A DNA stretch of 64,000 nt from NCBI GenBank assembly GCA_963704935.1, contig CAVPIF010000003.1:12256-76255 (forward strand). Reading direction: 5' to 3'. Below, in pieces: positions 2,566-52,436 of this stretch (its first letter is position 1; each line of letters begins with the position of its first letter). A program made the position numbers and the translations under genes. Source of the DNA: an uncultured Chloroflexia bacterium. GTDB lineage: Bacteria > Chloroflexota > Limnocylindria > Limnocylindrales > CSP1-4. Below the pieces are notes generated by a model. It worked only from the letters and a program-made list of their open reading frames with translations, made no database searches and was not told the DNA's origin.

Positions 2566-3831
2566 ATGGACCTCGAGCGGAACGTGACTAGCGTGGCCTG
2601 TCCGGCTTGTGGGCACGAGATCCTCGTTGATCGGCGGTTCGTCCCTTGGTGCGATGCGTGCGAGTGGAACGTCGACGTGGGGGTCCCTCCCCCGTCCACC
2701 CATCGCCTGGATCGGCTGGTTTCGGGAGTGTCCGGCACCCTGGCCTCCCGCCTCGCCGCCCGCGAGGACCTCGCCTCGGCCTCGGGCCGGCGCTTCGGTC
2801 GGGCGATCGTCGTGGCCGTCTCGATCGTCGTCGTCGGGCTCTGGGTCTGCCTCGGCATCGGCGGGATCTGGATCGTGTTCAACACGCCGGGCTTCCTGCC
2901 GCTGGTGGGCGGCGTCCTCGTGCTGGCCGCGTTCGCGAGTCGCCCGAGGTTCTACGCGGCCCCGCAGGTGCGCCTGGACCCCGCGACGACGCCGGCCCTG
3001 CATCGGTTCGTTGCGGACATCGCCGACCGGATGGGGTCACGGGTTCCGGACGCGATCGCCTTCGACGAGCAGTGGAACGCCGTCACGTATCGATTCGGCG
3101 TCCGGCAGCGGACGGCGATGGTGATCGGGATGCCCGTCTGGCGAGCCCTGGGACCGGCGGCCCGTGCGGCGCTCGTCGGGCATGAACTCGGCCACCGCGT
3201 CAACGGCGATCTGCGGCGCGGGATGCTGGTCGGTACGGCGATCGAGACGCTGGTGACCTGGGCCGCCTTCCTGACCCCGGAGGACATCACCGGCGGCGAT
3301 CGGGGCCTCACCGGGATCGTGATGATCCCGCTCAACATCGTGCTGTACGCGATCGCCCACGGAATCCGCCTCATCGTGCTCGGCATCCTCGTCCTCACGT
3401 TCCATGACGGTCGCCGAGCCGAGTTCCTGGCCGATCGCAAGGCGGCGTCGGCGGCGGGCATCGATGGGACCAGGACGGCCCTGCGGACCATCCGCGATCA
3501 GGGCGCCTTCGAACGCGCCGTCGCGACGGTCGTCAGGCGCTCGCTGCCGCCCGGCGATCTGTATGCGGCGCTCGTGGCCGAGCTGGACGCGACGCCGCCC
3601 TCCGCGACGGAGCGCTTGGACCGGCTCCAGCGGCGGGCGGGGCCGCAGCTGGGCGAAACGCACCCACCGATGTATCAGCGCCTCGAGCGACTGGCCGTGC
3701 TGGAGGGGCTCCCGGACGCGATGGTCGTGGACCCCGAGCTCATGGCTGCGATCGACCGAGAGCTCGCACCGTTCGAGGAGGCCCCGGCGAGGGCGGCGGC
3801 CGACGCCTATCGCCTCGAGATCCTCGGCTAG
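2566..3831 (+). CDS. Membrane M48-family zinc metallopeptidase with an N-terminal zinc-ribbon
   Basis: 421-aa ORF. It has an N-terminal CPACG...CDAC motif, hydrophobic segments (AIVVAVSIVVVGLWVCLGIGGIWIVF, LPLVGGVLVLAAF) and the HExxH motif VGHELGHRVNGD. Confidence 0.75.
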   Translation: MDLERNVTSVACPACGHEILVDRRFVPWCDACEWNVDVGVPPPSTHRLDRLVSGVSGTLASRLAAREDLASASGRRFGRAIVVAVSIVVVGLWVCLGIGGIWIVFNTPGFLPLVGGVLVLAAFASRPRFYAAPQVRLDPATTPALHRFVADIADRMGSRVPDAIAFDEQWNAVTYRFGVRQRTAMVIGMPVWRALGPAARAALVGHELGHRVNGDLRRGMLVGTAIETLVTWAAFLTPEDITGGDRGLTGIVMIPLNIVLYAIAHGIRLIVLGILVLTFHDGRRAEFLADRKAASAAGIDGTRTALRTIRDQGAFERAVATVVRRSLPPGDLYAALVAELDATPPSATERLDRLQRRAGPQLGETHPPMYQRLERLAVLEGLPDAMVVDPELMAAIDRELAPFEEAPARAAADAYRLEILG

Positions 3832-4262
3832 TCCAGGGCATCAGCCGCGGGTCGATACTCGCTGATCTCGAACAGATGGCCGTCCGGGTCCCGGAAGAAG
3901 CAACGCGTCTCGGCGCCGTTGGTCACCGGCGGCGTCAGGAAGACGGCGCCGCGGCCTCGGAGCTCCTCGCAGACGGCGTGGCAGTCGTCGACGCGCATCG
4001 TGAACAGGTGGTCCAGGGTGGTCGGATCGGCCGGCGGGACGAGGGTGACGTCCGGCTTGTCGTCGGTCGGTCCCCCACCGGTCACCAACAGGAGCCAGGC
4101 GGTGCCCAGCTGGAGCACGACGGACGTGCCGCCGTACTCGCCGTAGAGCTTCGCGCCGAGCACGTCGAGGTACCACGCACGTGACCGCGCCAGATCGGAG
4201 ACGACGAGGATGGTCGTGACGGCAAGGTCAGGGTTCGGGAACGGCATACGCCATCCTGCCAC
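3828..4262 (-). CDS. VOC/glyoxalase-family protein
   Basis: 144-aa ORF. The size and the pattern ...TILVVSDLARSRAWYLDVLG...FFRDPDGHLFEI are typical of the glyoxalase/bleomycin-resistance fold. Confidence 0.7.
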   Translation of the reverse strand: MAGWRMPFPNPDLAVTTILVVSDLARSRAWYLDVLGAKLYGEYGGTSVVLQLGTAWLLLVTGGGPTDDKPDVTLVPPADPTTLDHLFTMRVDDCHAVCEELRGRGAVFLTPPVTNGAETRCFFRDPDGHLFEISEYRPAADALD

Positions 4263-7067: not shown

Positions 7068-8404
7068 CAGGCGATCGGGGTGGTTGCGATCCCGGCCGGC
7101 TCCGGGGCGCCTCCGCGGCCTCCGCCCAGCGGACGGCGGCGGAGTCCAGTTCGCCGGCGAGGGCCGGTGCCACCCGTCCCAGGATCCGGACGTCGCGCTC
7201 CCCGTATTCGATCTCGATCGTCCCGCGCTCGCGGACCCGGGCCAGCAGTTCCCCTTCCGCGTATGGGAGCCGGACGTCCACGTCCACCCACAGCGAGGCG
7301 AGGACCGCGGCGACTTCGGCGCGCAGCGTATCGAGACCGAACCCGGTCAGGGCGGAGACCAGGACCGCGCCCGCGATCGCCGGGGCGACCGCCCCGCCGT
7401 CGAGGGCCGCGCGCTCCACGAGATCCGCCTTGTTGAGGGCCACGACCCGCGGCTTGTCGCCCGCCCCGAGCTCGTCGAGGACGGTCTGGACGGTGGTCCG
7501 GTGTTCGGCCCGATGCGGATCCGCGGCGTCCACGACCTCGATGAGCACGTCGGCGCGGTTGACCTCTTCGAGGGTGGCCCGGAACGCGTCGACCAGCTGG
7601 TGCGGGAGCTTGTGGATGAACCCGACCGTGTCGGTCACGATGGCCGTCTGGCCGTCACCGAGCTTCACCTGGCGGCTGGTCGGGTCGAGCGTGGCGAACA
7701 GCTTGTCTTCCGCCTTGGCGACCGTCGTCCGACCAGCGAATTGAGCAGGGTCGACTTCCCGGCGTTGGTGTAGCCGACGATGCCGACCGTGGGCCAGTAG
7801 ACGCCGGTCGCGGCCGCGGGCGGCAGTCGAGCGCTGTTGGCGGACCTGCTCCACCCGCTCCTTCATCTTCGTGATCCGGGTGCGGATGATCCGGCGGTCC
7901 GTCTCGAGCTGGCTCTCGCCCGGGCCCCGCGAGCCGATGCCGCCCTGCGTCCGCGACAGGTGCGTCCACAGGCGGGTCAGTCGCGGCAGCAGGTACTCCA
8001 GCTGGGCGAGCTCCACCTGGAGCCGACCTTCATGGGTCTGGGCGTGGAGCGCGAAGATGTCCAGGATCAGGCGACTCCGGTCGATGACCTTGACGTTGAG
8101 CAGCTCCTCCAGGGAGCGCTGCTGCGATGGCGACAGCTCGTCATCCGCCACGAGCGTGCCGAACCCGGTCTCGCGCTTCGCCGCGAGCAGGTCCTCCGCC
8201 TTGCCCTTGCCGATGTACCAGTTCGGGTCGATATGGCGCCGGTTCTGCCATTCCGCCCCCGACGACCTCCGCTCCGGCGGTCACGGCCAGGCTGGCCAGC
8301 TCGGAGAGCGATTCCTGGGCGCTCCAGCCGTCCGCAGCGCCCGTGTCGACGGCCACGAGGAAGACCTTCTCGGCGGGCGGCTCGAGGTCGATGAGCTCGG
8401 TCAT
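7067..8404 (-). CDS. hflX: GTPase HflX; the reading frame is broken about 4 times
   Basis: The N-domain (MTELIDLEPPAEKVFLVAVD...AEVVG) and the continuation (WQNRRHIDPNWYIGKGKAEDL...DELSPSQQRSLEELLN) lie in different frames, changing at the C-run 8256-8260. The P-loop PTVGIVGYTNAGKSTLLNSLVG is readable only in a shifted frame (~7740-7810). The C-terminal stop is reached only after a shift at ~7095. GAGGA lies 8 nt before the ATG at 8404. Confidence 0.8.
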
Positions 8405-8429
8405 GCGGGGCATCCTCGAAGGATAGTCC

Positions 8430-9362
8430 CTAGCGCGCGACGAGACCGCTGATGCGCCGGGCCGCGTCGCGGTCCAGGTCGGGAGCCGCGGCGTCCAGCC
8501 ATGCGATCCCGGGTTCTGCGCGGAACCACGTCGCCTGGCGCTTCGCGAAGGTGACGTTGCGCTGCGCGTCGAGGTCGATCGCCGCCTGGCGGCTGAAGAG
8601 CGCCGTCGAGTACGGACCACGCCTCGCGATAGCCGATGGCGCTGAAGGCGGGGAGCGCCGGGTCGTAGCGCTCGCGCAGGCCGCGCGCTTCCTCGATGAG
8701 CCCGGCGTCGAACTGCGCGCGGGCGCGGGCCGCGATGCGGCGCTGATGCTCGGCGGGGTCCAGCCGCAGCCCGAGCCAGGTGGACGGCCCGTCGTAGCCA
8801 CGTGGCTCCGGCAGCGGCCGATCCCCCACGAGCTCGGCGATCTCCAGGGCGCGGACGACCCGCCGCGGGTTGCGCAGGTCCAGCTGTTGCGCGCGCGACG
8901 GGGCGAGCACGGCCAGACGTTCGACGAGGCCGGCCAGCCCGTCGGAGGCGAGCTCCGCCTCCAGCCGGGCGCGGACGGTGGCGTCGCTCGGCAGCGCATC
9001 GGTGTCGATCCCGCGCCCGATCGCGCGGAGGTAAACCCGGTGCCGCCCACGAGCAGGGCGACGCCGTCGCGGGCGGCCAGGTCGGCCAGCGCGGCGCGGG
9101 CGTGGGCCGCGAAGTCGGCCACGCTGAAGGGCTCGTCCGGATCGACGAGGTCGAGGCCGTGGTGCGGGACCCGTGCCCGGTCCGCGGCGTTCACCTTGGC
9201 CGTGCCGATGTCCATCCCGCGGAAGACCTGGCGCGAATCGGCCGAGATGATCTCGGCCGGTCTGCCGCCGGCGACGATCGACTCCGCCAGCCGGATGCCG
9301 AAGTCGGTCTTGCCGGTGGCCGTCGCCCCGGCCACGATGATGAGCGGTGGCGCGGCGGTCAC
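8430..9362 (-). CDS. miaA: tRNA dimethylallyltransferase MiaA; two frame changes
   Basis: The P-loop IIVAGATATGKT and ...LLVGGTGF are in one frame. YLRAIGRGIDTDALPSD...NPRRVVRALEI...FSAIGYREAW is in a second frame. The C-terminus returns to the first frame (changes at ~9040 and ~8600). The GTG start overlaps the miaB stop (GTGA). Confidence 0.8.
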   Translation of the reverse strand: MTAAPPLIIVAGATATGKTDFGIRLAESIVAGGRPAEIISADSRQVFRGMDIGTAKVNAADRARVPHHGLDLVDPDEPFSVADFAAHARAALADLAARDGVALLVGGTGFTSARSGAGSTPMRCRATPPSAPGWRRSSPPTGWPASSNVWPCSPRRARNSWTCATRGGSSAPWRSPSSWGIGRCRSHVATTGRPPGSGCGWTPPSISAASRPAPARSSTPGSSRKRAACASATTRRSPPSAPSAIARRGPYSTALFSRQAAIDLDAQRNVTFAKRQATWFRAEPGIAWLDAAAPDLDRDAARRISGLVAR

Positions 9363-10950
9363 GCTCCGTCCGGGCCCGGAGGTCCCGCCGTGACCTGGTC
9401 CTCGATCGGCCGGCCGCGGAGCGCGTAGGGACCGGCGTGTTCGATGCGGACGCGAAGACGACCTCACGACCGATCAGCCGCTCGTCGCCCGGGAGGTGGA
9501 CGAGCTTGTTACCACGCGTCCGACCCGACACCTGCGCCGTGGTCCTGCCGGCGGGCGCCGCCGCGGAGCCGCCATCGTCGCCGGCCGCGCCGTGTTCGTG
9601 GGCGCGCGGCGGCGTGACGCTGTCGACGAGGACCGCGACATCCGCGACCGACCCAGGCGGCGTTCCGTTCGCGCCCGATCGTCTCCTGGAGGGCCAGCAG
9701 CTCGTTGAGGCGACGCCGCTTGACGTCCGGCGGGACGTCGTCGGCGAGGCGCGTCGCCGGCGTTCCGGGCCTGGGCGAGTAGGCGGCCGCGAAGACCTGG
9801 TCGTAGCGGACGGTCTCCAGCAAGGCGGAGCGTCGACTCGGAACTGGGCGTCCGTCTCGCCGCAGAACCCGACGATGACGTCGGTCGAGACGGTGATGCC
9901 GGGGCACGGCCTCGCGGATCCGTGGCCAGCCGCTCCTGGTAGTGGTCGCTCGGTGTATTGGCGGCCCATCCGCCGAAGCACGGCGTCGTCGCCCGACTGG
10001 ACCGGCAGATGGAGGTGCTCGCACACGCTGTGGCAGTCGGCCAGCGCGGCGATCAACCGGTCCGAAAGGTCCCAGGGGTGTGAGGTGACGAACCGCAGCC
10101 GCGCGATCGCGCGGTTCCCGTCGGACGTGCGCAGCGAATCGATGGCGCGGATCAGTTCGGCGAGGTCCGGTCGCCCGTGCAGGTCGAGTCGGCGCCCGGC
10201 CCAACGTTCGGCATCGACGTGCGCGAACTCGCGCTTCGGGGGCCAGGTCGTGCCCGTAGGAGTTGACGTTCTGGCCGAGCAGGGTGACCTCGCGGTAGCC
10301 GGCCGCTGCGAGGGCTCGGGCCTCGTCCACGACCTCGTCGAACGGGCGGCTACGCTCCGGGCCGCGGCTGATCGGGACGATGCAGTAGGTGCACGTCTTG
10401 TCGCAGCCATAGATGATCGGCAGCCAGGCGCTGACGGCCGAGCCCCGGGCGACGGTCCCCTCCCCCACGGCCCGGGCCCGGCTGGCCGACAACCCATCGG
10501 CGACGCCGACCTCGGTCCGTCCGACGACCGTGGTCGCGCCCGACCAGGGGCCGTCGTCCGAGCGCCGATCGCGGCCTGGGCGGACGCCAGGCCGAGCCGA
10601 TCGACCAGTTCCGGCTCCTCGTCGGGTCGCAGGAACAGGTCGACGGCCGGGTAGCGGCGCCGGAGGCCGGCGCGGTCCGGTTCGCGGACCGAGCAGCCGG
10701 TCAGCACGACCCGCAGCGCCGGGTTGCTCGCCTTGAGCGCGCGCCAGCTGGCCCTGTCGGCCGATGACCTTCTGCTCCGCGCCTTCGCGGATCGCACAGG
10801 TGTTGATGACGATGAGGTCGGCGACGTCCATCGATCGCTGCCTCGTCGCAGTCCGGCCGCCAGGAGCCGACCGGCGATCTCCTCCGAGTCGCTCTGGTTC
10901 ATCTGGCAGCCGAGCGTCCAGACGTGGAACCGCGGCAGGGTCCGCAGGTC
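9359..10950 (-). CDS. miaB: tRNA methylthiotransferase MiaB (radical SAM); roughly nine frame changes; 5' end unresolved
   Basis: These segments are spread over all three minus frames: [74 protein letters not shown] (CxxxCxxC), [60 protein letters not shown] and [17 protein letters not shown]. No canonical start is in frame with the N-terminal block. A GTG at 11045 in another frame is a possible true start. Confidence 0.75.
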
Positions 10951-11135
10951 AGGGACGTATTCGGCGAGCCGGTCGTCGGCGGGCGTGGCCGGGTGACGCG
11001 GGGCGACGGCGGCGCGGGCGTGACGGCGTCGAGGACGTCGAGCACGGGCAGGGCGCGGGAGGCGTGCGGGGGTCGGTCACGGCGGCGCCATGGTACCGAC
11101 GGTTCCTCGCCAAGGACGCGGTATCCTGCGTCGCC

Positions 11136-11909
11136 ATGGAACTGTTGACCAACCCCGAGACGTGGATCGCACTGTTGACGCTGACGGTGCTCGAGATCGT
11201 GCTCGGGATCGACAACATCATCTTCATCTCCATCCTCGTCCAGCGGCTGCCCGAGCGGACCGCGACCAGGCGCGCCTGATCGGCCTTGGCCTGGCGATGG
11301 GGATGCGGATCCTGCTGCTCCTGACGATCTCGTGGATCGTCGGGCTGACCGCACCGGTCTTCACCTTCGCCGACAACGCGTTCTCGTGGCGCGACCTGAT
11401 CCTGATCGTCGGCGGGTTCTTCCTGCTCTGGAAGGCCACGACGGAGATCGGCGAATTGCTGGAGGGAGAGGCGGCCATGAGGCGGACCCAGCCCGCGGGG
11501 ACCGCGCGCTTCGGGGCCGTGCTCGTCCAGATCATGCTGCTCGACATCGTCTTCTCGCTCGATTCGGTACTCACCGCGGTGGGCATGGCGAACGAGATCG
11601 TGGTGATGGTCGCCGCCGTCGTGATCGCGGTCGGGGTCATGCTCGTCGCGTCCGGACCGCTGGCCACGTTCGTGCGCCACCACCCGACGGTCAAGATGCT
11701 GGCCCTTGCGTTCCTGCTGCTCATCGGCGTGACGCTGGTGGCCGACGGCTTCGGCTTCCACATCGACAAGGCCTACATCTACGTGGCGATGGGATTTAGC
11801 GTCTTCGTCGAGGGCCTGAACCTGCGCGCCCGCCTCCCGACGACGCCAGGAGCCGGTCCACCTCCGCCCGACGTTCGTGAAGGAAGAACCCGAGCCCGAC
11901 GCGATCTAG
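11136..11909 (+). CDS. TerC-family integral membrane protein; two frame changes
   Basis: MELLTNPETWIALLTLTVLEIVLGIDNIIFISIL is followed, in another frame, by RLIGLGLAMGMRILLL...LLDIVFSLDSVLTAVGM...AMGFSVFVEGLNLRA. A plausible tail, RRRQEPVHLRPTFVKEEPEPDAI-stop (TAG 11907-11909), appears only after a further shift at ~11840. The uncorrected ORF runs on into the repeat array to 12301. Confidence 0.7.
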
Positions 11910-12006
11910 GCACCGCCGGGACGGGTAGGGCGCGGGGGTCGCGTGCGCGGCGGCGGGAAGGGCGCGGGCGCGCGGGCCGGGTCCGCGCGCGGGCGCGTCA
12001 CCGGGT

Positions 12007-12131
12007 GACCGAACGGACCAACGAGCGATCCGGCCGCACCCGTCATCGGTCGGGCGGGTCACCCCATGCCCCGCTCGGCGATCCGGCGGGGCTATTGGGG
12101 CCCCACGGGCCGTTCGTTCGTCGGTTCGGTC
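12007..12131. repeat. 125-bp palindromic (MITE-like) element, copy A
   Basis: It is bounded by GACCGAACGGACCAACGAGCG (12007-12027) and CGTTCGTTCGTCGGTTCGGTC (12111-12131). Of the 21 positions, 19 pair, including one G-T. It is almost identical to copy B. Confidence 0.7.
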
Positions 12132-12133
12132 AT

Positions 12134-12495
12134 GGGATGACCGGGGCGCGACCGATGGGATGGCCGGGGCGCGACCGATGGGATGGCCGGGGCGCGACCG
12201 ATGGGATGGCCGGGGCGCGACCGATGGGATGGCCGGGGCGCGACCGATGGGATGGCCGGGGCGCGACCGATGGGATGGCCGGGGCGCGACCGATGGGATG
12301 ACCGGGGCGCGACCGATGGGATGACCGGGGCGCGACCGATGGGATGACCGGGGCGCGACCGATGGGATGACCGGGGCGCGACCGATGGGATGGCCGGGGC
12401 GCGACCGATGGGATGGCCGGGGCGCGACCGATGGGATGACCGGGGCGCGACCGATGGGATGACCGGGGCGCGACCGATGGGATGACCGGGGCGCG
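12134..12495. repeat. Tandem array of 15.7 copies of the 23-bp unit GGGATGRCCGGGGCGCGACCGAT
   Basis: I read this directly from the sequence. The period is 23 bp (12134, 12157, 12180 ...), with no spacers. The only variable position is R, in the order A, Gx6, Ax4, Gx2, Ax3. Confidence 0.9.
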
Positions 12496-12528
12496 GGGGT
12501 CGCGTCAACGGCTCGCGCGTCACCGGGT

Positions 12529-12653
12529 GACCCAACGGACCAACGAGCGATCCGGCCGCACCCGTCATCGGCCAGCTGGGTCACCCCATGCTCCGCTCGG
12601 CGATCCGGCGGGGCGATCGGGGCCCCACGGGCCGTTCGTTCGTCGGTTCGGTC
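12529..12653. repeat. 125-bp palindromic (MITE-like) element, copy B
   Basis: It has the same architecture as copy A, with terminal repeats at 12529-12549 and 12633-12653. It differs by only a few substitutions, and both copies are preceded by GCGCGGGGGTCGCGT. Confidence 0.7.
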
Positions 12654-12655
12654 AT

Positions 12656-12780
12656 GGGATGACCGGGGCGCGACCGATCGGATGACCGAGGCGCGACCGA
12701 TGGGGCGCGACCGATGGGGCGCGACCGATCGGATGACCGAGGCGCGACCGAGGGGCGCGACCGATGGGGCGCGACCGATG
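12656..12780. repeat. Degenerate tandem array of mixed 23-bp and 14-bp units sharing the core GGGGCGCGACCGAT
   Basis: Read directly as GGGATGACCGGGGCGCGACCGATC / GGATGACCGAGGCGCGACCGAT / GGGGCGCGACCGAT x2 / ... It ends 17 nt before the PHP gene stop. Confidence 0.8.
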
Positions 12781-12796
12781 GGCACGAGTCCCGTGT

Positions 12797-13712
12797 CTAC
12801 CCCGCGGCGACCCGCGCCAGCATCCGCTCCCCGACCTCGGGCGGTACCCACAGGGTTGCGTGTGACTCGGCATACGAACCCAGGTCGCCGTGGTAGTCGG
12901 TGCCGCCGGTCGTCAGCAACCCGAGGCTGGCCGCGACCTCCCCGACCGCGGCCGTCGTCGCCGCGTCGAAGCTCCGGTAGTGGACCTCCAGGCCCGCCAA
13001 TCCGACTTCGATGAGTTCCGCGGAGGAGGTCGATCCGGGCCGGCGCCTCGCGGAAATGGGCGAGCACCGGGATCCCCCCCGCCGCCACGACCGCGCGGAT
13101 GGCCTCTTCCGGGCCCAGGCCGTCACGCCGGACGTAGCCGGGCGCCCCGTGCCCGATGATCCGCGTGAAGGCGTCCTCCACGCTCGATGCGAACCCGGCG
13201 CCCATCAGCGCCCGCGCGATCGTGGGGCGGCCCAGCGCGTCGTCATCGCCGGACGACAGGTCGGCGACCTGCGCGTCGATCGGCAGGTCGAGCTCCCGCA
13301 GTCGATCGATCGTCCGCGCGAACCGCAGTCGTCGCTGCTCCCGCTGGAGGCGGAGCGCGGCCTCGAACGCGTCGTCGGCCGGGTCCATCCCGAACCCGAG
13401 GATGTGCAGCTCTCCCTCCCACAGGCCGAGGTCGCGGGTCACCAGGGCGTTGATCTCGACACCCGGGATGAGCGCAAGACCCGGCGGCACGGCGTCGGCC
13501 GCGACGACCTCCCGGTACCCGGCGAGCGTGTCGTGATCGGTCAGGGCGAACGTCCGGACCCCGGCGTCGTGAGCCGCCGCGACCAGCACGGCCGGTTCCA
13601 GGACGCCGTCGGAGCGGACCGTGTGGGCGTGCAGGTCCACGGTGGACGGACTCGACGGGACGACGGCGCCATCCGGCGGCACGGGGGCGTGGCGGCGTCC
13701 GGTCCGGGGCAC
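12797..13712 (-). CDS. PHP-domain phosphoesterase (TrpH/YciV-like); one frame change
   Basis: VDLHAHTVRSDG...FALTDHDTLAGY...GIPVLAHF is in the frame of ORF 11796..13712. The C-terminus ELIEVGLAGLEVHYRS...GGTDYHG...stop is in the frame of ORF 12797..13126. The change is at ~13020, and the span length leaves remainder 1 on division by 3. Confidence 0.75.
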
Positions 13713-16143: not shown

Positions 16144-16454
16144 GTCCGTAGTCCTCCCATCCGGACCGGGTTATGCGGCCGGACGCGTCACGTGTGCGGT
16201 GGCACGATCGCGTCGAGGACGGTGGGTCCGACCCCCCAGGAGTCGATCCCGGCCCCGTGTCACTCCGTGTGACGGCGGGGCCCTCGGTGGGCCGCGATCG
16301 GCCGGTTCCAGGCTGGGAAGCGCCGTTGTCAGAGGCGCCAGTTCATCTGTCGCGTAGCCTACGGCCGACCGTCCGGGGGTCAACCGAGGGTTGCGTTGAC
16401 GCAACCTCGGTCGGCGGGCGTTGACGAGCGGGCTAGGCTCGCAGGGATGAACGA

Positions 16455-16769
16455 ATGCAGGGCGATCGCGTGACACGACTCGCCGACCGGTTGCGGGGTC
16501 TGGTCGGGCGGCGTCCGCCCGCCTGCCGGCATCTCGACCAGGTGCGTGACGTGGCGCCCCGGACCGACGGCTGTGAAGCCTGCCTCGCGATCGGGGCGAA
16601 GTGGGTCGAGCTCCGGCTCTGCCTCACCTGCGGACATGTCGGCTGCTGCGACCTGTCGCCGAACCGCCACGCGCGGGCACACTTCGTCGAGACGAGCCAC
16701 CCGATCATGCGGGCCAGCGTGCCGGGTCACACGTGGAGCTGGTGCTGGATCGACGAGATCAAGGTCTGA
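16455..16769 (+). CDS. UBP-type zinc-finger protein
   Basis: 104-aa ORF. CRHL...CEACL...WVELRLCLTCGHVGCCDLSPNRHARAHF..TSHP...WSWCWID matches the zf-UBP pattern. Confidence 0.75.
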   Translation: MQGDRVTRLADRLRGLVGRRPPACRHLDQVRDVAPRTDGCEACLAIGAKWVELRLCLTCGHVGCCDLSPNRHARAHFVETSHPIMRASVPGHTWSWCWIDEIKV

Positions 16770-16782
16770 TCGGCGCGATCCC

Positions 16783-17331
16783 CTACCCGTCTTCGGCCGC
16801 CGCGTCCAGCGTGGCCGCCACCTCACGGCAGGTCTCCGGGTCGAAGCCATGGCGCGCGAGGAGGGCGTAGGCCCGCTGGCGCCGCTGCCGCGGGTCCGCG
16901 ACGCGGGCGAGCGCCCGGGCGTGCCGGGCCAGGAGCCGTTCCGCCGCGGCCCGGTCCGGGCCGACCGCGACCCCGGCCGCACGGCGTTCATCGAGTACCT
17001 CGTCGACCACCGCTCGCTCGATCCCCTTGAGGCGCAGTTCCTCGCGGATCGCCCGTTCGCCACGCGGCCGTGCGCGGTCACGCGACTCCACCCATACGCG
17101 AGCGAAGGCCGCGTCGTCGAGCATCCCGAGCTCAGCCAGGCGCCCGATCGCGCCATGGACGAGGTCCGCCTGGTAGCCCGCGCCGGTGAGGCGACGACGC
17201 ACTTCCGCGACGGATCGCGGGCGCGCCTCGAGGAACCGGGCGGCGGCCTCCAGAACGACGGCCGGGTCGTCGACGGCCGCCCGGCGTTCGCGCCGTTCGG
17301 CGAATGACTCCCGCGGTCGACGGCCCTGCAC
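16783..17331 (-). CDS. recX: Recombination regulator RecX
   Basis: 182-aa ORF directly downstream of recA. It shows the repeated three-helix pattern (...GYQADLVHGAIGRLAELGMLDDAAFARVWVESR...). Confidence 0.85.
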   Translation of the reverse strand: MQGRRPRESFAERRERRAAVDDPAVVLEAAARFLEARPRSVAEVRRRLTGAGYQADLVHGAIGRLAELGMLDDAAFARVWVESRDRARPRGERAIREELRLKGIERAVVDEVLDERRAAGVAVGPDRAAAERLLARHARALARVADPRQRRQRAYALLARHGFDPETCREVAATLDAAAEDG

Positions 17332-24832: not shown

Positions 24833-26918
24833 ATGACGATGAAGAGCGTCGATCTGCCCCACCTTCGCAGCGTCGTCTTGGCCGGCCATGCCGGCGCCGG
24901 CAAGACGACGCTCGCCGAGCAGCTCCTGTTCAAGGCGGGTGCCATCCCGCGGATGGGCAGGGTGGACGACGGGACCGCGCATCTCGACTTCGAACCCGAG
25001 GAGCAGAAGCGCAAGGAGTCGCTGAGCCTCGCGGTCGGGACGTTCGAGTACGACGGGACCCGGATCTCGCTGCTGGATACGCCGGGCTACCCGGACTTCG
25101 TGGCCGACGTCATCGAGGGCGTCGCCGCGGCCGACGGCGCCATCCTGGTGATGGATGCGTCCGCCGGTGTGGAGGCGGGACTGGAACAGGCGGTGGCCCT
25201 GGCGCGGGCGACCAACACGGCGACCTGCTTCTTCCTCAACAAGTGCGACCGCGAGAATGCCAACCCGACGGCCGCGCTCGACGCCCTGCGCGCCACGTTC
25301 GGCCACAAGATCGCGGCGATCCAGCTGGCGATCGGTTCGGCCGATGCGTTCAGCGGCTACGTCGACCTCGTCCACCGCAAGGCATACCGCTGGGACGGCC
25401 ACGACGAGGTCGAGATCCCGATCCCGGACGACCTCGCCGATGAGGTCGCCCGCCGGCGGGACGAGCTGCTGGAGGCTGCGTCGGAGGCCGACGACGACGT
25501 GATGGTCAAGTACCTCGAGGGCGAGGATATCTCCGATCACGAGCTGGAGATCTGCCTGCGCAAGGGCGTCAAGGACAGCGTGCTGGCGCCCGGTCCTCGT
25601 GGGCTCCGCCGCGAAGGGGATCGAGCTGCGCGGGTTGCTCGATGCGATCGTCCGGTACCTCCCCTCCCCGGCGGACGAGCCGCCGGCCCGAGCGCTGGAC
25701 AAGGCCGGAGCTGCGGTCGAAGTGGCCGCCGACGAGGCCGGGCCGCTCCTCGTCCGCGTGTTCAAGACGACGGCCGACCCGTTCGTGGGCCGGCTGACCT
25801 ACCTGCGCGTCCTGTCCGGCACGCTGCGCTCCCAGGCCCACGTCTGGAACACCACGCGCGACGAGGACGAGCGGATCGGGCAACTGCTGCTGCTGCACGG
25901 CAAGGAACAGGAGGCCATCGGGGAGCTGAAGGCGGGCGAGATCGGGGCGGTCGCCAAGCTGGCCGTGACCGAGACCGGCGACACGCTGGCGACCCGGGAG
26001 AAGTGGCTCAGCCTGCCGCCGCTGGAGTTCCCGGCGCCGTCCCTCGTCGTGGCGATCGAACCCGTCTCCAAGCAGGACCTGGACAAGATGGGCCCGGCCC
26101 TCCAGCGCATGCTGGAGGAGGAGCCGACCGTCCACCTGGAGCGTACGGCGCTGGGCGAGCAGGTGCTCGTGACGATGGGCGAGGCGCACACGGCCGTGAT
26201 CATGGAGCGCCTCAAGCGCAAGTTCGGGGCGGCGGTGGCGACCCACACGCCCAGGGTCCCCTACAAGGAGACGATCCGCGGGACGACCAAGGTCCACGGA
26301 CGCTACAAGAAGCAGACCGGCGGGCACGGGATGTTCGGCGATGTGTGGCTGGAGCTCGAGCCCAACCCGGACGGTGGTGTCGAGTTCGCCGAGAAGGTCG
26401 TCGGAGGTTCGGTGCCGAGGGGCTTCTTCGCGGGCGTGGAAAAGGGCATCCGCGAGGCCGCCGCCGAGGGTGTGCTGGCCGGCTACCCGCTGTCCGATTT
26501 CCGGGCGACCCTGTACGACGGGTCGTTCCACGCGGTCGATTCCAACGAGCTGTCGTTCAAGATCGCGGCGTCCATGGCGCTCAAGGACGGCGTCCACCAG
26601 GCGAAGCCGGCGCTCATGGAGCCGATCATGGCGGTGGAGATCCGGATCCCGGAGGCCTACATGGGCGAGGTCAACCGCGACCTCAACGGCCGACGCGGTC
26701 GCGTGTTGGGCATGGACAGCGCCAACGGCATGCAGGTGATCACCGCCCACGTGCCGCAAGCCGAGTTGTTCTCGTACGCCACGGAGTTGCGGTCACTGGC
26801 CCAGGGACGCGGGTCCTTCAAGGCCGTGCTGGATCACTACGAGGACGTGCCCGGTCACCTGGCCGAGAAGGTCATCGAGACGCATCGCAAGGAACTCGAG
26901 GGGGCCGGCGGCCACTGA
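24833..26918 (+). CDS. Elongation factor G-family GTPase (an EF-G paralogue, not canonical fusA); one frame change
   Basis: The G-domain carries AGHAGAGKTT, DTPGYPDF and NKCD in ORF 24779..26980. Domains II-V lie in ORF 25599..26918 (...RVFKTTADPFVGRLTYLRV...HGRYKKQTGGHGMFGDVWLE...). The change is at ~25592. GGAGGA precedes the ATG at 24833. The span length leaves remainder 1 on division by 3. Confidence 0.85.
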
Positions 26919-35808: not shown

Positions 35809-38638
35809 TTGCGGGCTCAGATGCAGACGACTCTCGCGCGGCGGCAGCGTCACAGACGCGCCAACCGTCGCCGTTCCGAGAGGGGCGGCGGAGGTTGGGC
35901 TCGCCGCATCCTCATCGCCGTCCCCGTCATCCTGCTGCTCCTCAGCCTGCTCACGGCAGGAGCTGGAGCCCTGTTCTCGGTCGCCGCGTACAACTACTAC
36001 GCGCAGGGGCTCCCGGACCCCAAGGCCGCCCTCACGAACATCGACTTCGAGCAGCAGACGATCGTCTACGACCGGACCGGCAAGGTGGAGCTGGCTCGCC
36101 TCGGATCGCTCCGCCGCGAGGTCGTCACGTTCGACCAGCTCCCGGACGAGATGCTCGATGCGACGACGGCGATCGAGGACAAGGACTTCTGGGTCAACCC
36201 GGGATTCGACCCGGTCGGCATCATCAGCGCCGGCCTCGACACCATTTCCGGCCGACCGCGCGGGGCGTCCACCATCACCCAGCAGCTGGTCCGCAACCGG
36301 CTGCTGCCGGCCGAGACCCTCCAGCTTCCGACCTACGAGCGGAAGATCAAGGAGATCATCCAGTCGATCCGCCTGACGGAGGCGTATCCCGGCGAGGACG
36401 GCAAGCGCCAGATCATCACGGCGTACCTCAACAACAACTTCTACGGCAACAACAGCTACGGCGTGAAGGCCGCGGCCAAGGGCTACTTCGGCAAGCCGCT
36501 GGAGGAGCTGACCCTCGCCCAGTACGCCATCCTCGCCGCCATCCCCCAGTCGCCGACCAAGTTCGACCTGCTCAGGAACGCCGAGGAGTTCTGCCTCGAC
36601 GAACCCGTTCCTGGCGCCGACCCGACCGCCAGCCCGGACCCGGCGGCCACTCCCGAACCGACCTCGACCGACACCGTCGAATGCGCGAAGGTGGAGCTGC
36701 GGATCCCGACCTCGAGCGAGATCGTCGTCCGCCGCAACTACGTCCTCGATCTCATGAAGTCGCGCAGCCCGCTGTCCGGTGACCGGCACACGGCCGCCGA
36801 GTACGAGGCCGCCAAGCGCGAGCCGGCGATCGTCCAGCCGCAGGTCGCCGCGACCTGGCGGGCTGCCCACTTCGTGTGGCAGGTGCGGGAAGCCCTCGCC
36901 CAGATCCTGTGCCCCGACGCGCCGGACGACTGCCCGGAGGTCGATACCGGCGGCTACCGGGTGACGACCACGCTCGACTGGGAGATGCAGAAGGTCACGG
37001 AGAAGTACGTCTACGCGGCGGCCCGGGCGCCGCAGGCCAAGGACCCTCGGGCGGTCCTCAAGGCTCGCAAGATCCCCGAGAGCCAGTGGGGCTGGATGCT
37101 CAACCTGCGTGGACGCAACATCCACAACGCGGCGGCCGCCGTGATCGACTACCGGACCGGCGAGGTCCTCGCCTATGTCGGCAGCGCGAGCTACACCTCC
37201 AAGGGTTCCGACGAAGTTCCAGCCCCAGTTCGACGTCCTCGCCGACGGCTGGCGCCAGCCCGGTTCGTCGATCAAGCCGATCGACTACCTGATCGGGATC
37301 GACGACAAGACCCTCACCGCCAGCACGATGCTGATGGACGTCGTCACCGACTTCGGCAAGGGGTTCACGCCGACCCAGGCGGACAAGCTCGAGCGCGGTC
37401 CGGTCCGGCTCCGCAGCGCCCTCCAGTTCTCGCTCAACATCCCGGCCATCAAGGCCACCGTCATCAGCGGCCTGGACCGCACCTTCGAGCGGAGCAAGGA
37501 CTTCGGGCTGCGGTTCCGGAGCACGGCCATCCCGGTCGTCTCGATGGGGATCGGCACGCTGGAGACCCATCCCGATCGACATGGTCGACGGCGTACGGGA
37601 CGATCGCCAACGGCGGCGTCCGGATGCCGCGGCAGACGATCCTGACCATCGTCAACGACCAGGGGACGCGCGTCTGGCCGCTGGACGACGCCCCGGCCAA
37701 GGGGACGCAGGTCGCCAGCCCGGCAGGCCGCCTACATCATCACCGACATCCTGGCCGGCAACACGGACAAGAAGGTCAACCCGTACTGGGCCGAGTGGGC
37801 CGTCTACGAGGACGGCAAGCGGCGACCCGCCGCCTACAAGACGGGGACGACCAGCAACAACCGCGACGTCCACGCCTATGGCTACACCGCGCCGCCGAAG
37901 GACCCCGAGGCGCCGGCACTGGTCGTCGGCGTCTGGATGGGCAACAGCGACGACACTCCGAACAAGGGCAGCCTCTCGCTCGATTCCTCCGCGCCGCTGT
38001 GGTCCGCGATCATGACCGCGGTCAGTCGCGACTCGCCGATCGCCTCGTTCACGCCCCCCGATGGCCTGGAGACGGCCGAGGTCGACGCCTTCACCGGGCT
38101 CAAGCCCGGACCGTTCACCACCAAGACGGTCAAGGAGCTCTTCCTGCCCGACACCGTCCCGAGCGACCGCGAGACGATCCGCATCGCGCTCGAGATCGAC
38201 GAGGCGTCGGGCTTGCTGTGGCAGGACGGCTGCGTCGGCCCCAAGGTCACTCGCGGCTTCTTCGACCTGTCGGAGGTCGAGAGCAACTTCCCGGCGTGGC
38301 AGAAGGCCAACACCGCCTGGGCGGCACGGGCTGCCAAGGGGACGGGGGTGCGGGGCGGACCGGAGGGCACCCGGACGACCTACTTCTACAACGGTTCCTT
38401 CGCCCCGTTCGGTCGGACGTGGGGAGCTCCGTTCGCACCCAAGGAGACGTGCCCGCTCGCGCCGCCACCATGCGGTGTCCAGCCGATCGATCCGGACCCG
38501 TCCGACGACATCCCGGCCCCGACGCCGATCCCGTGCCCGACCCCGACCCCGACGCCCGTGCCGTCAGACCCGGGCGACGGCGGTGGCGGCCAACCCAACC
38601 GGCCGACGCCTCGCCCGACCAACGCCCCCGAACCCTAG
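35809..38638 (+). CDS. Class A penicillin-binding protein (glycosyltransferase plus transpeptidase); four frame changes
   Basis: The GT51 motifs are AIEDKDFW and RGASTITQQLVRN. The transpeptidase SxxK motif (PGSSIKP) is in the frame of ORF 37175..37645. AYGTIANGG is back in the first frame. YKTGTTSN and the Pro-rich tail are in the frame of ORF 37937..38638. The changes are at ~37210, ~37572, ~37590 and ~37723. The span length leaves remainder 1 on division by 3. Confidence 0.85.
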
Positions 38639-46648: not shown

Positions 46649-46846
46649 CTAGAGGTACGGCAGCAGGCGTCGTACCTGCTTGGCATGCACGGCGCCCATC
46701 ACGGTCTTGCCGGCGTAGCGGCGTGTCCGTCGAGAGGACTTGATCTCGAGGTGATGGCCACGCCACGCGTTGACCCGGACGATCTTGCCCGAGCCGGTCA
46801 CGCCGATGCGCTTCTGGGCCGCCTTGTGGCTCTTGATCTTGGGCAC
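46649..46846 (-). CDS. rpmI: 50S ribosomal protein L35
   Basis: Starts at a GTG: (M)PKIKSHKAAQKRIGVTGSGKIVRVNAWRGHHLE...; 65 aa. AGGAGA lies upstream. In the ORF track it is fused to the infC frame (46649..47569). Confidence 0.9.
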   Translation of the reverse strand: MPKIKSHKAAQKRIGVTGSGKIVRVNAWRGHHLEIKSSRRTRRYAGKTVMGAVHAKQVRRLLPYL

Positions 46847-46853
46847 CCTGGCC

Positions 46854-47596
46854 TCACTCTCCTGCTTGCACCGGCGCTGCGGCCGGGACGCTTGGCTTCT
46901 TGGTCGGCGCCGGGCTCGGGGCCGCCTCGGGGGCGGGAGCCGGCGCTGGTTCGATGGTCGTTTCGGGCGCCTCCGGAACATCCGTCGCGGCTTCGGCCGT
47001 TGCGGCTTCGGCCGTTGCGGCTGCGGCCGTCGGACCACCTCGGCGTCCGCCGGATGCTTGCGGTCCGGCGCGTCGTGGCCCTTGGGCTTGTGGGTCGAAG
47101 CCATCGTGATGTGCATCGACTTGCCCTCGAGCAGCGGCGTCCGTTCCGCCACCCCATGATCCTTCACCCGGTCGACGAACCGGGCGATCAGGTTGCGGCC
47201 GATCTCCGGGTGGGTCAATTCCCGACCCCGGAACCTGACGGTCACCTTGATCCGGTCGCCATCCTCCAGGAACTCCACCGCCCGATTCACCTTCGTGTCG
47301 AAGTCACCGACGCCGATCTTCGGCGACAGGCGGACCTCCTTGAAGGTCACCGAGCGCTGCTTGCGCTTGGCTTCCTTGTCCCGCTTGGTCAGTTCGTACT
47401 TGTACTGCCCGAAGTCGAGGAACTTGACGACCGGGGGCTGCGCCATCGGTGCGACCTCGACGAGGTCGTAGCCGCGGTCCTGCGCCATCTCGAGGGCACG
47501 TGGTGTGGGCATCACACCCAGCTGTGCACCCTCTTCATCGACGACCCGCACCTGTGGGATCCGGATCATCTGGTTGATTCGCAGGTCTCGGCTGAT
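46854..47596 (-). CDS. infC: Translation initiation factor IF-3 with a non-AUG (ATC) start and a long low-complexity C-terminal tail; 3' end ambiguous
   Basis: After an in-frame TGA (47600-47602) the frame reads T-I-SRDLRINQMIRIPQVRVVDEEGAQLG. No ATG, GTG or TTG lies upstream of the conserved RIN..IR block. AAGGGGTGA sits just before ATC (47594-47596). In its own frame there is no stop before rpmI. An alternative frame (Ala/Pro/Glu-rich tail) stops at TGA 46854-46856. Confidence 0.8.
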
Positions 47597-47711
47597 GGTT
47601 CACCCCTTGTTCGTCGCGGATTCATCCGTCCGGCACGCACGAAGACGCCCGTGCCGGGCCGAGGCGGAACGATAGCATACCGGTCCCAAAACCGCGACGC
47701 GACGCGTCCGA

Positions 47712-52359: not shown

Positions 52360-52436
52360 TGGTGGGCGACACTGGACTCGAACCAGTGACCTCTTGCATG
52401 TCAAGCAAGTGCTCTAACCAGCTGAGCTAGCCGCCC
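52360..52436 (-). tRNA. tRNA-Val (anticodon GAC), CCA encoded
   Basis: The reverse complement is GGGCGGCTAGCTCAGCTGGTTAGAGCACTTGCTTGACATGCAAGAGGTCACTGGTTCGAGTCCAGTGTCGCCCACCA. It folds as a cloverleaf with acceptor GGGCGGC/GTCGCCC, anticodon stem CTTGC/GCAAG, loop TTGACAT, and T-arm ACTGG-TTCGAGT-CCAGT. Confidence 0.93.

Follow-up and report, generated by a model that had tools for sequence, protein, structure and literature searches.

What kind of DNA fills the roughly 890 bp (887 bp, positions 11910-12796) that separate the convergent 3' ends of the genes for a TerC-family membrane protein and a PHP-domain phosphoesterase in an uncultured Chloroflexia bacterium? The stretch studied here, called the window, comprises 64,000 nucleotides of the 1.39-Mb contig CAVPIF010000003.1 (assembly GCA_963704935.1), and coordinates refer to it unless another contig is named. 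The locus contains two copies of a palindromic element, each followed by an array of short tandem repeats (Table 1). The initial annotation of this DNA offered four explanations: an element resembling a miniature inverted-repeat transposable element (MITE) with an attached satellite, a protein-binding array, a G-quadruplex-prone block, and a structured RNA. The first came closest. The locus is probably a low-copy hairpin element of the repetitive extragenic palindrome (REP), bacterial interspersed mosaic element (BIME) or MITE-like kind whose end seeded a minisatellite, after which a 522-bp block was duplicated. This reading is based on the anatomy of the locus, its insertion between the two genes, the homology of its palindromes to two other loci and the recurrence of an adjacent tandem array.

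TABLE 1 Features of the TerC-PHP intergenic locus and of the genes on either side
Feature	Position	Strand	Characteristics
TerC-family membrane protein gene	11136..11909	+	Stop TAG at 11907-11909; three frames in assembly
Left junction J1	11910..11992	+	GC-rich; decayed array units and J2 motif GGGCGCGGGGGTCGCGT (11928-11944); direct-repeat families D5, D6
Element copy A	11993..12133	+	Three short palindromes; 21-nt inverted arms at 12007-12027 and 12111-12131
Copy A palindrome 1	11997-12009		GTCACCGGGTGAC; loop CGG
Copy A palindrome 2	12057-12069		GGTCACCCCATGC; inverted orientation, loop CCCC
Copy A palindrome 3	12128-12142		GGTCATGGGATGACC; loop GGG
Array A	12134..12495	+	15.7 copies of GGGATGRCCGGGGCGCGACCGAT; one variable site, in blocks
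Junction J2	12496..12514	+	With end of last partial unit, GGGGCGCGGGGGTCGCGTCAACGGCTCGCGC; homologous to part of J1
Element copy B	12515..12655	+	Palindromes at 12519-12531, 12579-12591 and 12650-12664; arms at 12529-12549 and 12633-12653
Array B	12656..12782	+	23-bp and 14-bp units mixed; direct-repeat families D2, D4
PHP-domain phosphoesterase gene	12797..13712	-	Stop CTA (=TAG) at 12797-12799; Pfam PHP

Tandem Repeats Finder (TRF) delimited array A at 12132-12495 with a period of 23, 15.8 copies, 98% matches, 0% indels and a score of 672. Reading the array unit by unit gave 15 full units, all exactly 23 bp long, and a 17-nt partial unit, which bears out the 15.7 copies initially annotated. 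The single variable base was also found in blocks as noted before, in the order A, Gx6, Ax4, Gx2, Ax2, with a further A in the partial unit. The 14-mer core GGGGCGCGACCGAT, previously put at about 23 occurrences, was present 20 times exactly, 21 times with at most one mismatch and 22 times with at most two, against 0.45 expected from dinucleotide shuffles. Array B had been described as a decayed mixture of 23-bp and 14-bp units. The mixture was recovered, but the array is not only decayed, since it contains a higher-order unit of 51 bp (23+14+14) repeated 2.3 times at 12665-12779 with 98% identity (TRF periods 23, 14 and 51).

The two 125-bp elements are near-identical as claimed (117 of 125 positions), but the duplicated block is longer than had been noted: positions 11993-12182 match 12515-12704 over 190 nt at 94%, and the junctions upstream of the two elements are related as well (11912-11951 and 12473-12512, 75%). 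The duplicated entity is therefore a block of about 522 bp made up of junction, element and array. Remnants of decayed units are found directly 3' of the TerC stop, at 11912-11968. Since each 125-bp element is composed of three palindromes, its 21-nt "terminal inverted repeat" corresponds to the outer half-arms of palindromes 1 and 3. The 19 of 21 paired positions reported for these arms hold for copy A when one G.T pair is counted; Watson-Crick pairs number 18 of 21 in copy A and 17 of 21 in copy B. Outside 11.9-12.8 kb, neither the element nor the unit was detected again in the 64-kb window by blastn-short, a palindrome pattern or an nhmmer profile.

The locus is noncoding. Three long open reading frames (ORFs) cross it as 23-aa periodic peptides, as the initial annotation had pointed out (11090-12301 on the plus strand and 11796-13712 and 12092-12568 on the minus strand). 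These mechanical ORFs run into the locus because the TerC and PHP genes are both frameshifted in the assembly. Pfam TerC matches occurred in two frames of the window; with an intact TerC from a related contig (L002) as the tblastn query, frame 3 switched to frame 2 near 11275, and alignment placed the C-terminal tail ...PTFVKEEPEPDAI* against homologue tails solely in the third frame. With the PHP protein of L002 as the query, PHP frames -3 and -1 met at 13018/13020, placing a frameshift near 13019. DNA alignment identified this frameshift as a one-base insertion relative to L002 and revealed single-base indels in both genes. The TerC and PHP stops were confirmed by tblastn and homologue alignment, so that 11910-12796 is the true intergenic gap and both gene ends lie where they had been placed.

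Comparison with syntenic relatives revealed an empty site. Four contigs (L001, L002, L025 and L026) were 79-87% identical to the window in nucleotides, encoded YmdB proteins with 90-94% amino acid identity and had the gene order RecA-RecX-x-RNaseY-YmdB-PHP-TerC(rev)-MiaB-MiaA in common. The YmdB protein cluster also contained a 100% identical fragment (P0131, from a contig of 1.68 Mb); the closest relatives compared by DNA were those with 79-87% nucleotide identity. In all four contigs the blocks homologous to the flanks of the locus lie about 30-110 nt apart, and no similarity to the locus was found in any of them. The calls for PHP and TerC share 4 bp in L002 and L025 and are less than 75 bp apart in the other relatives. 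The stops in the relatives thus overlap or nearly adjoin, and the ~890 bp therefore represents a lineage-specific insertion and not a conserved feature. The filled and empty sites are clear against these four contigs, although their divergence is too great for the breakpoints to be fixed. On a fifth contig (P0003, a JGI contig of sample 3300048101) the PHP-TerC gap measures 258 bp. A TCTA direct repeat at 11905-11908 and 12796-12799 brackets the 887-bp locus; it keeps both stops and is not significant alone. The overlapping stops are located at 5846-5849 in L002 and 5372-5375 in L025, and those of L025 share CTAG.

The initial annotation had stated that a lack of conservation of the unit, the array and its position in related genomes would argue for a neutral local satellite, and this is largely what was found, as none of the three is kept in any related genome. 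A required function is made less likely by this lack of conservation. Being both noncoding and not conserved, the locus most probably represents neutral or selfish DNA.

The 23-mer, with which a genome search had been proposed, had no match in 185,579 species genomes; the source genome itself was matched in neither pattern scan. A degenerate two-arm pattern (TGACCSAACSGACSAACGARCG, an exact degenerate 22-mer) matched six loci among the species genomes. Two of these belong to long-read metagenome-assembled genomes (MAGs) named "uncultured Chloroflexia" (L007 and L009; CAWHRB01 and CAWCEC01) and were the only loci from Chloroflexota; the four actinobacterial loci extended for just 22-29 nt and were taken as chance matches. 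Over 40-43 nt, L007 and L009 are 90-93% identical to the right end of the window element. Alignment and profile search showed that each of them carries three palindromes with the core GGTCAYSGGRTGACC and the arms CGTTCGTCGGTTC... and ...GAACGGAC, an arrangement that the window element repeats. The spacing of the palindromes is 58-72 nt in L007, L009 and the window element, and each 8-kb stretch of the two contigs contains one element locus. Neither contig has relatives of TerC or PHP beside the element (in L009 the neighbours are convergent GntR-aminotransferase and alpha/beta hydrolase genes), indicating that the palindrome family occupies nonorthologous sites.

Tandem repeats were again found beside these palindromes. 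In L009, an array of 2.9 copies of a 52-bp unit (3576-3726, 94% identity) begins 31 nt after the third palindrome, and each unit holds inverted repeat or arm-like motifs, ACGACCGACGA ... CGTTGGTCGGTT. A decayed short-period G/T-rich tract, GGTCCGGGTCGGGTTGGGTCAGGTTGGATCAGGCTGGGCCAGG, is present in L007 at 3975-4030, directly upstream of the palindrome cluster; it may be another degenerate micro-array beside the element. Four TRF rows scored at least 200 in 133 kb of Chloroflexota DNA, and three of them adjoin these elements (two in the window and one in L009). The fourth, in L025, has a period of 42 bp, a multiple of 3, and is located inside a called gene. When rotated to GGGCGCGACCGATGGGATGACCG, the 23-bp unit resembled the left boundary of the element, GGGCGCGTCACCGGGTGACCG (aligned by eye), and started with the loop and right half-stem of palindrome 3 (GGG-ATGACCG). 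This match of unit and boundary indicates that the array unit in the window appears to be built from element sequence.

Pattern scans with the arms were affected by a resemblance to gene starts. High-GC genes commonly start with ATG/GTG ACC GAA CCG ACG (M-T-E-P-T), and the arm motif TTCGTCGGTTCGGTCAY is that stretch read on the opposite strand; for this reason the exact-pattern arm scans mostly returned gene starts (L011-L024). Of two metagenome arm scans, the first gave no match and the second gave 11 loci, all of them chance matches; in many of these, TTCGTCGGTTCGGTCAT/C corresponds to that gene start in reverse complement. Three viral arm matches look like gene-start matches too. Pattern-based searching for the hairpin family thus needs caution over matches of this kind. 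A small minus-strand ORF in the element, MTEPTNERP..., was rejected as coding, because its length differs between the copies (13 aa in A, 26 aa in B) and its tails diverge. A dimer of the 14-mer had no match in viral contigs, and no plasmid or phage record matched the locus. A chimeric query composed of array and element pseudo-ORF peptides from both strands was searched against 5.8 billion protein clusters and retrieved only the window's own P0121, a 334-aa protein that is the TerC call of the source annotation stretched into the array.

An assembly artefact, in which the array or the whole insertion was produced by expansion, collapse or chimerism during long-read assembly or polishing, was considered very unlikely. 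The frameshifts of the window (PHP, TerC and MiaB/MiaA) are typical of an indel-prone long-read consensus, all three element-bearing contigs come from long-read MAGs, and short-read metagenomes gave no true match. However, the insertion falls exactly between two intact stops with collinear flanks on both sides, the 15 full units are exactly 23 bp long with a block-structured A/G variant, and a nesting of 14/23/51/522-bp repeats is what real satellites typically display. Moreover, homologous palindromes were present in independent assemblies, and long reads are the type of data able to span such arrays. The related contigs stem from long-read Nanopore soil MAG projects (PMC12313526). Other housekeeping genes of the window are likewise broken or fused by single-base frame changes, the affected regions being 8401-10902, 10764-11909, 12797-13712, 25503-26918 and 46649-47599; MiaB and MiaA share one ORF (8401-10902), IF3 and L35 share one stop-to-stop ORF, and EF-G is without an in-frame GTPase domain. 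These frame changes look like consensus indel error of long reads rather than pseudogenization, and they inflate the number of spurious ORFs. The existence of the array is credible; its exact copy number is less sure, as the consensus is taken to be indel-prone.

Whether the locus has a function as structure was addressed by folding. As plus-strand RNA, element A folded with -105 kcal/mol and a z score of -3.7. Element B was marginally better than shuffles (z score of -1.8), and the array was no better than shuffles (z score of -0.2). The inverted half is gone from the window unit, which has GACCGAT in place of GGTCAT, and this explains why the array lacks structure. Stems of 7-15 bp were found in hairpins W3, L7_1, L7_2, L9_2 and L9_3, and the palindrome stems in the window measured 5-7 bp. 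The check for a known Rfam family that had been suggested returned no Rfam 15 match in the locus, either at an E value of ≤10 over 11000-13500 or at the gathering score over the window, L007 and L009, where one tRNA was the only match. With no Rfam match, no structure in the array and hairpins confined to the element, the structured RNA proposed initially was not supported.

A functional hairpin block, acting as a bidirectional terminator, an insulator or a 3'-end stabilizer between the convergent TerC and PHP transcripts, is an unlikely explanation, to which we nevertheless give some weight. It would account for the long hairpin of element A and the several 7-15-bp stems, and the setting is suitable: the 3' ends converge here, the L009 element also lies between convergent genes, and REPs are found mostly 3' of ORFs and in the gaps between convergent ones (PMC3733652). 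The relatives nevertheless manage without the locus, with their stops overlapping. Scans for promoters and intrinsic terminators gave no site in the locus, which has no T-run; the array adds no structure; the fold of copy B is marginal; and the asymmetry of G.U versus A.C among the hairpins was mixed, so that no strand-specific RNA signal was seen. By analogy with REP and BOX elements, which are thought to act as terminators or 3' stabilizers (PMC3733652, PMC3049150), strong hairpins at two convergent 3' ends could still serve as incidental terminators or as stem-loops that protect the 3' ends.

In a high-density binding array, iteron-, centromere- or operator-like, a DNA-binding protein would recognize the 14-bp core or the GACCG motif every 11-12 bp. 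The 20 to 22 core copies, far above the 0.45 expected, and the almost identical units are what such an array would display, and GACCG does recur at alternating 11- and 12-bp spacing inside the 23-bp unit. The array, however, is kept in no relative and was absent from the other genomes, viral contigs and protein clusters searched. No transposase, integrase, rep, par, cas or regulator gene was detected by Pfam among the scanned ORFs of the 64-kb window, in line with what had been reported for the vicinity of the locus. Array B is already degenerating or reorganizing, and the array unit in L009 differs in length and sequence. A binding array is therefore highly improbable. An iteron or a parS-like centromere was rejected as well, because the neighbours are HflX, MiaA, MiaB, TerC, PHP, YmdB, RNase Y, RecX and RecA and the array is absent in the relatives.

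Even less credence is given to the idea that a block prone to G-quadruplex (G4) formation or recombination plays a structural part where the two transcripts converge. The plus strand alternates GGG and GGGG tracts, 10 of the 23 motifs with relaxed loops (1-12 nt) on the plus strand of the whole window are in the locus, and GC skew peaks over the array at 0.32. The usual G4Hunter cutoff is 1.2-1.5, and a canonical G4 consists of four tracts of at least three G's with loops of ≤7 nt. The array reached a G4Hunter mean of 0.90 and a maximum of 1.20, at or below the cutoff; its G-tract loops alternate between 6 and 10 nt; and two canonical motifs (loop of ≤7 nt) were counted in the locus. These values, together with the lack of conservation of the array, speak against the proposal.

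The statement in the initial annotation that no described element has this layout was too strong, since BOX elements (PMC3049150), REP clusters or BIMEs, and tagged REPs (PMC3733652) are precedents. The closest layout is that of BOX elements, boxA-(boxB)n-boxC composites of 67-637 bp whose terminal modules are partly inverse complements of each other, that leave ORFs open on both strands and in which longer arrays are more variable in length (PMC3049150). They are MITE-like, have no gene of their own, exceed 100 copies per genome and have a 45-bp boxB module (PMC3049150). Like them, the window locus is a small noncoding intergenic element with a short module in tandem and ORFs running through the array, and array A is bracketed by inverse-complementary arms (12111-12131 and 12529-12549), a likeness that is a structural analogy only. 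Unlike boxB, the module in the window is 23 bp long (14 bp in array B), and the element is known from one locus in 64 kb and two more elsewhere. The arrays lie outside the 125-bp inverted-repeat unit, and the host belongs to the high-GC Chloroflexota. No sequence similarity to boxA, boxB or boxC is expected at 76% GC, though no direct comparison with them was made.

REP and BIME clusters resemble the window element in several respects. REPs are extragenic palindromes of 20-40 bp, many of them grouped with neighbours in opposite orientation, and a genome carries tens to thousands of dispersed copies. Its palindromes are short (a 15-nt core, up to about 45 nt with arms), intergenic and located between convergent stops, the middle one is inverted, and they fold together into a larger hairpin. 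REPIN doublets are a further structure of this kind. The subset of REPs tagged with CGTC has stems of 8-9 bp starting with A/T pairs, loops of 4-5 nt and no transposase (PMC3733652). In tagged REPs the tetranucleotide, GTAG or CGTC, is unpaired and adjacent to the stem, and the tail is CCA; CGTC REPs have not been reported from Chloroflexi (PMC3733652). The copies in L007 and L009 can be written CGTC-GG-TTCGGTCA-TGGGG-TGACCGAA, in which two A/T pairs open an 8-bp stem and the loop measures 5 nt, and no dedicated transposase was seen. GTAG-class REPs are associated with a RAYT (Y1 transposase) gene that the repeats themselves flank; no RAYT gene was found among the scanned ORFs of the window. 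In contrast to the tagged REPs, CGTC is 2 nt (L007 and L009) or 4 nt (window) away from the stem, and the tail is GCC/GGG. Only three loci are known, and REPs seldom adjoin perfect minisatellites. Because the tag is not adjacent, the tail is different and few copies are known, the element was not filed as a member of the CGTC REPs.

The likeness to MITEs is partial: the 21-nt arms pair, yet they are half-arms of neighbouring palindromes and not clear transposon ends. The palindromes were found at three nonorthologous loci in three genomes, and no insertion sequence was seen. The suggestion of a MITE-like element with a satellite thus remains the nearest of the four in its palindrome cluster, its nonorthologous relatives and its insertion relative to the syntenic contigs. 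Bacterial loci with variable numbers of tandem repeats (VNTRs), such as mycobacterial interspersed repetitive units (MIRUs), are near-identical intergenic head-to-tail repeats with units of 10-100 bp whose copy number varies among strains. The window arrays are similar to them in their head-to-tail arrangement, the variants in blocks and a probable origin by slippage or unequal exchange, but array A is tied physically and by sequence to a palindromic element and is nested in a 522-bp duplication. Short GC-rich direct repeats and the 58-72-nt palindrome spacing also recall CRISPR (clustered regularly interspaced short palindromic repeats), and GGGATGACCG is like the ends of type I-E repeats. 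A CRISPR remnant was rejected on account of absent spacers, poor repeat conservation, alternating orientation and the lack of cas domains in the scanned ORFs of the window. The units abut, and the initial annotation had likewise excluded CRISPR for want of spacers.

The locus is situated in a region of core housekeeping genes (HflX, MiaA, MiaB, TerC, PHP, YmdB, RNase Y, RecX, RecA, RuvAB, YebC and EF-G), and the window further contains genes for histidine biosynthesis, TyrRS, PheST, IF3/L35 and ThrRS. The YmdB homologues bear names like Candidatus Limnocylindrales and Chloroflexota. The GC content of the locus is 76%, versus 71% for the window. No tRNA or tmRNA was found near the locus; the sole Rfam match in the window is a tRNA-Val at 52363-52436. 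TerC genes often carry a yybP-ykoY riboswitch. No such (Mn2+) riboswitch was detected upstream of TerC at 10900-11140 at the Rfam gathering score. Repeats of another kind, unrelated to the locus, occur in the gene for an uncharacterized protein between recX and rny, where in-frame coding repeats vary among the relatives: 42 bp (4.3 copies, 1066-1244) in L025 and 33 bp (2-3 copies) in L001 (3789-3894) and L002 (1619-1684). No intact counterpart of this gene was confirmed in the window, where ORF 16380-17156 was without a Pfam match. ORF 37646-38638, with high GC3 and no Pfam match, contains repeats of a CCCGAC hexamer and of 12/18 bp at 38502-38562, probably a Pro/Asp-rich low-complexity protein segment.

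Under the reading of a hairpin element with an attached minisatellite, the locus could have formed in four steps. Three palindromes of about 15 nt with extended imperfect arms would first have been inserted exactly between the abutting TerC and PHP stops. The region of the 3' terminal palindrome would then have been amplified head to tail into the 23-bp minisatellite by slippage or unequal exchange, the amplified piece being, on this model, the loop, the right half-stem ATGACCG and the adjoining GGGCGCG. The block of junction, element and array (about 522 bp) would have been duplicated once, and the two arrays would subsequently have diverged separately, array A having recently expanded or been homogenized and array B having been reorganized into the 51-bp higher-order unit. 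Satellite-type dynamics of this sort fit the block-wise variants, the 51-bp unit, the 522-bp duplication and the remnants at 11912-11968.

Several points weigh against this reading. The locus has no clean outer terminal inverted repeats, and the short TCTA is the only flanking direct repeat. The family is known from three loci only, and neither a transposase nor a RAYT gene was seen; mobility of the element is therefore something we infer. The census of the element in the source genome was limited to 64 kb. The copy number of the array rests on an assembly with many indel errors. In addition, selection or very recent homogenization, and not neutrality, could be the reason why 15 units are alike save for one site.

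On a bolder version of this reading, which is rather doubtful, the triple-palindrome unit would be a mobile hairpin element, low in copy number and not described before, that is carried by soil Limnocylindria-like Chloroflexota and seeds arrays wherever it has landed. The cases of seeding would be the 23-bp array of 15.7 copies with the 14/23/51-bp array in the window and the 52-bp array of 2.9 copies in L009; L007 has just the decayed tract. If true, an array-seeding element would imply an element-specific generator of minisatellites, for example through forks that stall at the terminal hairpin or through nicks made there by a host or element-associated HUH-type enzyme, and the arrays would be visible only with long-read MAGs.

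The locus is most likely of an ordinary kind, a new low-copy palindromic intergenic repeat with an attached VNTR, and not a new functional system. Its scientific value is modest, and a new functional question would arise only if the array were conserved or bound by a protein. The array creates long spurious ORFs, as in the annotation of P0121, and a locus of this kind is lost by short-read assemblies. It is also likely to be a hypervariable marker for strain tracking in metagenomes. If confirmed, the element would represent a new palindromic repeat family of intergenic DNA, from an uncultured soil lineage that has received little study, and a clean case of a minisatellite growing from a terminal hairpin, which would help to explain the origin of bacterial VNTRs.

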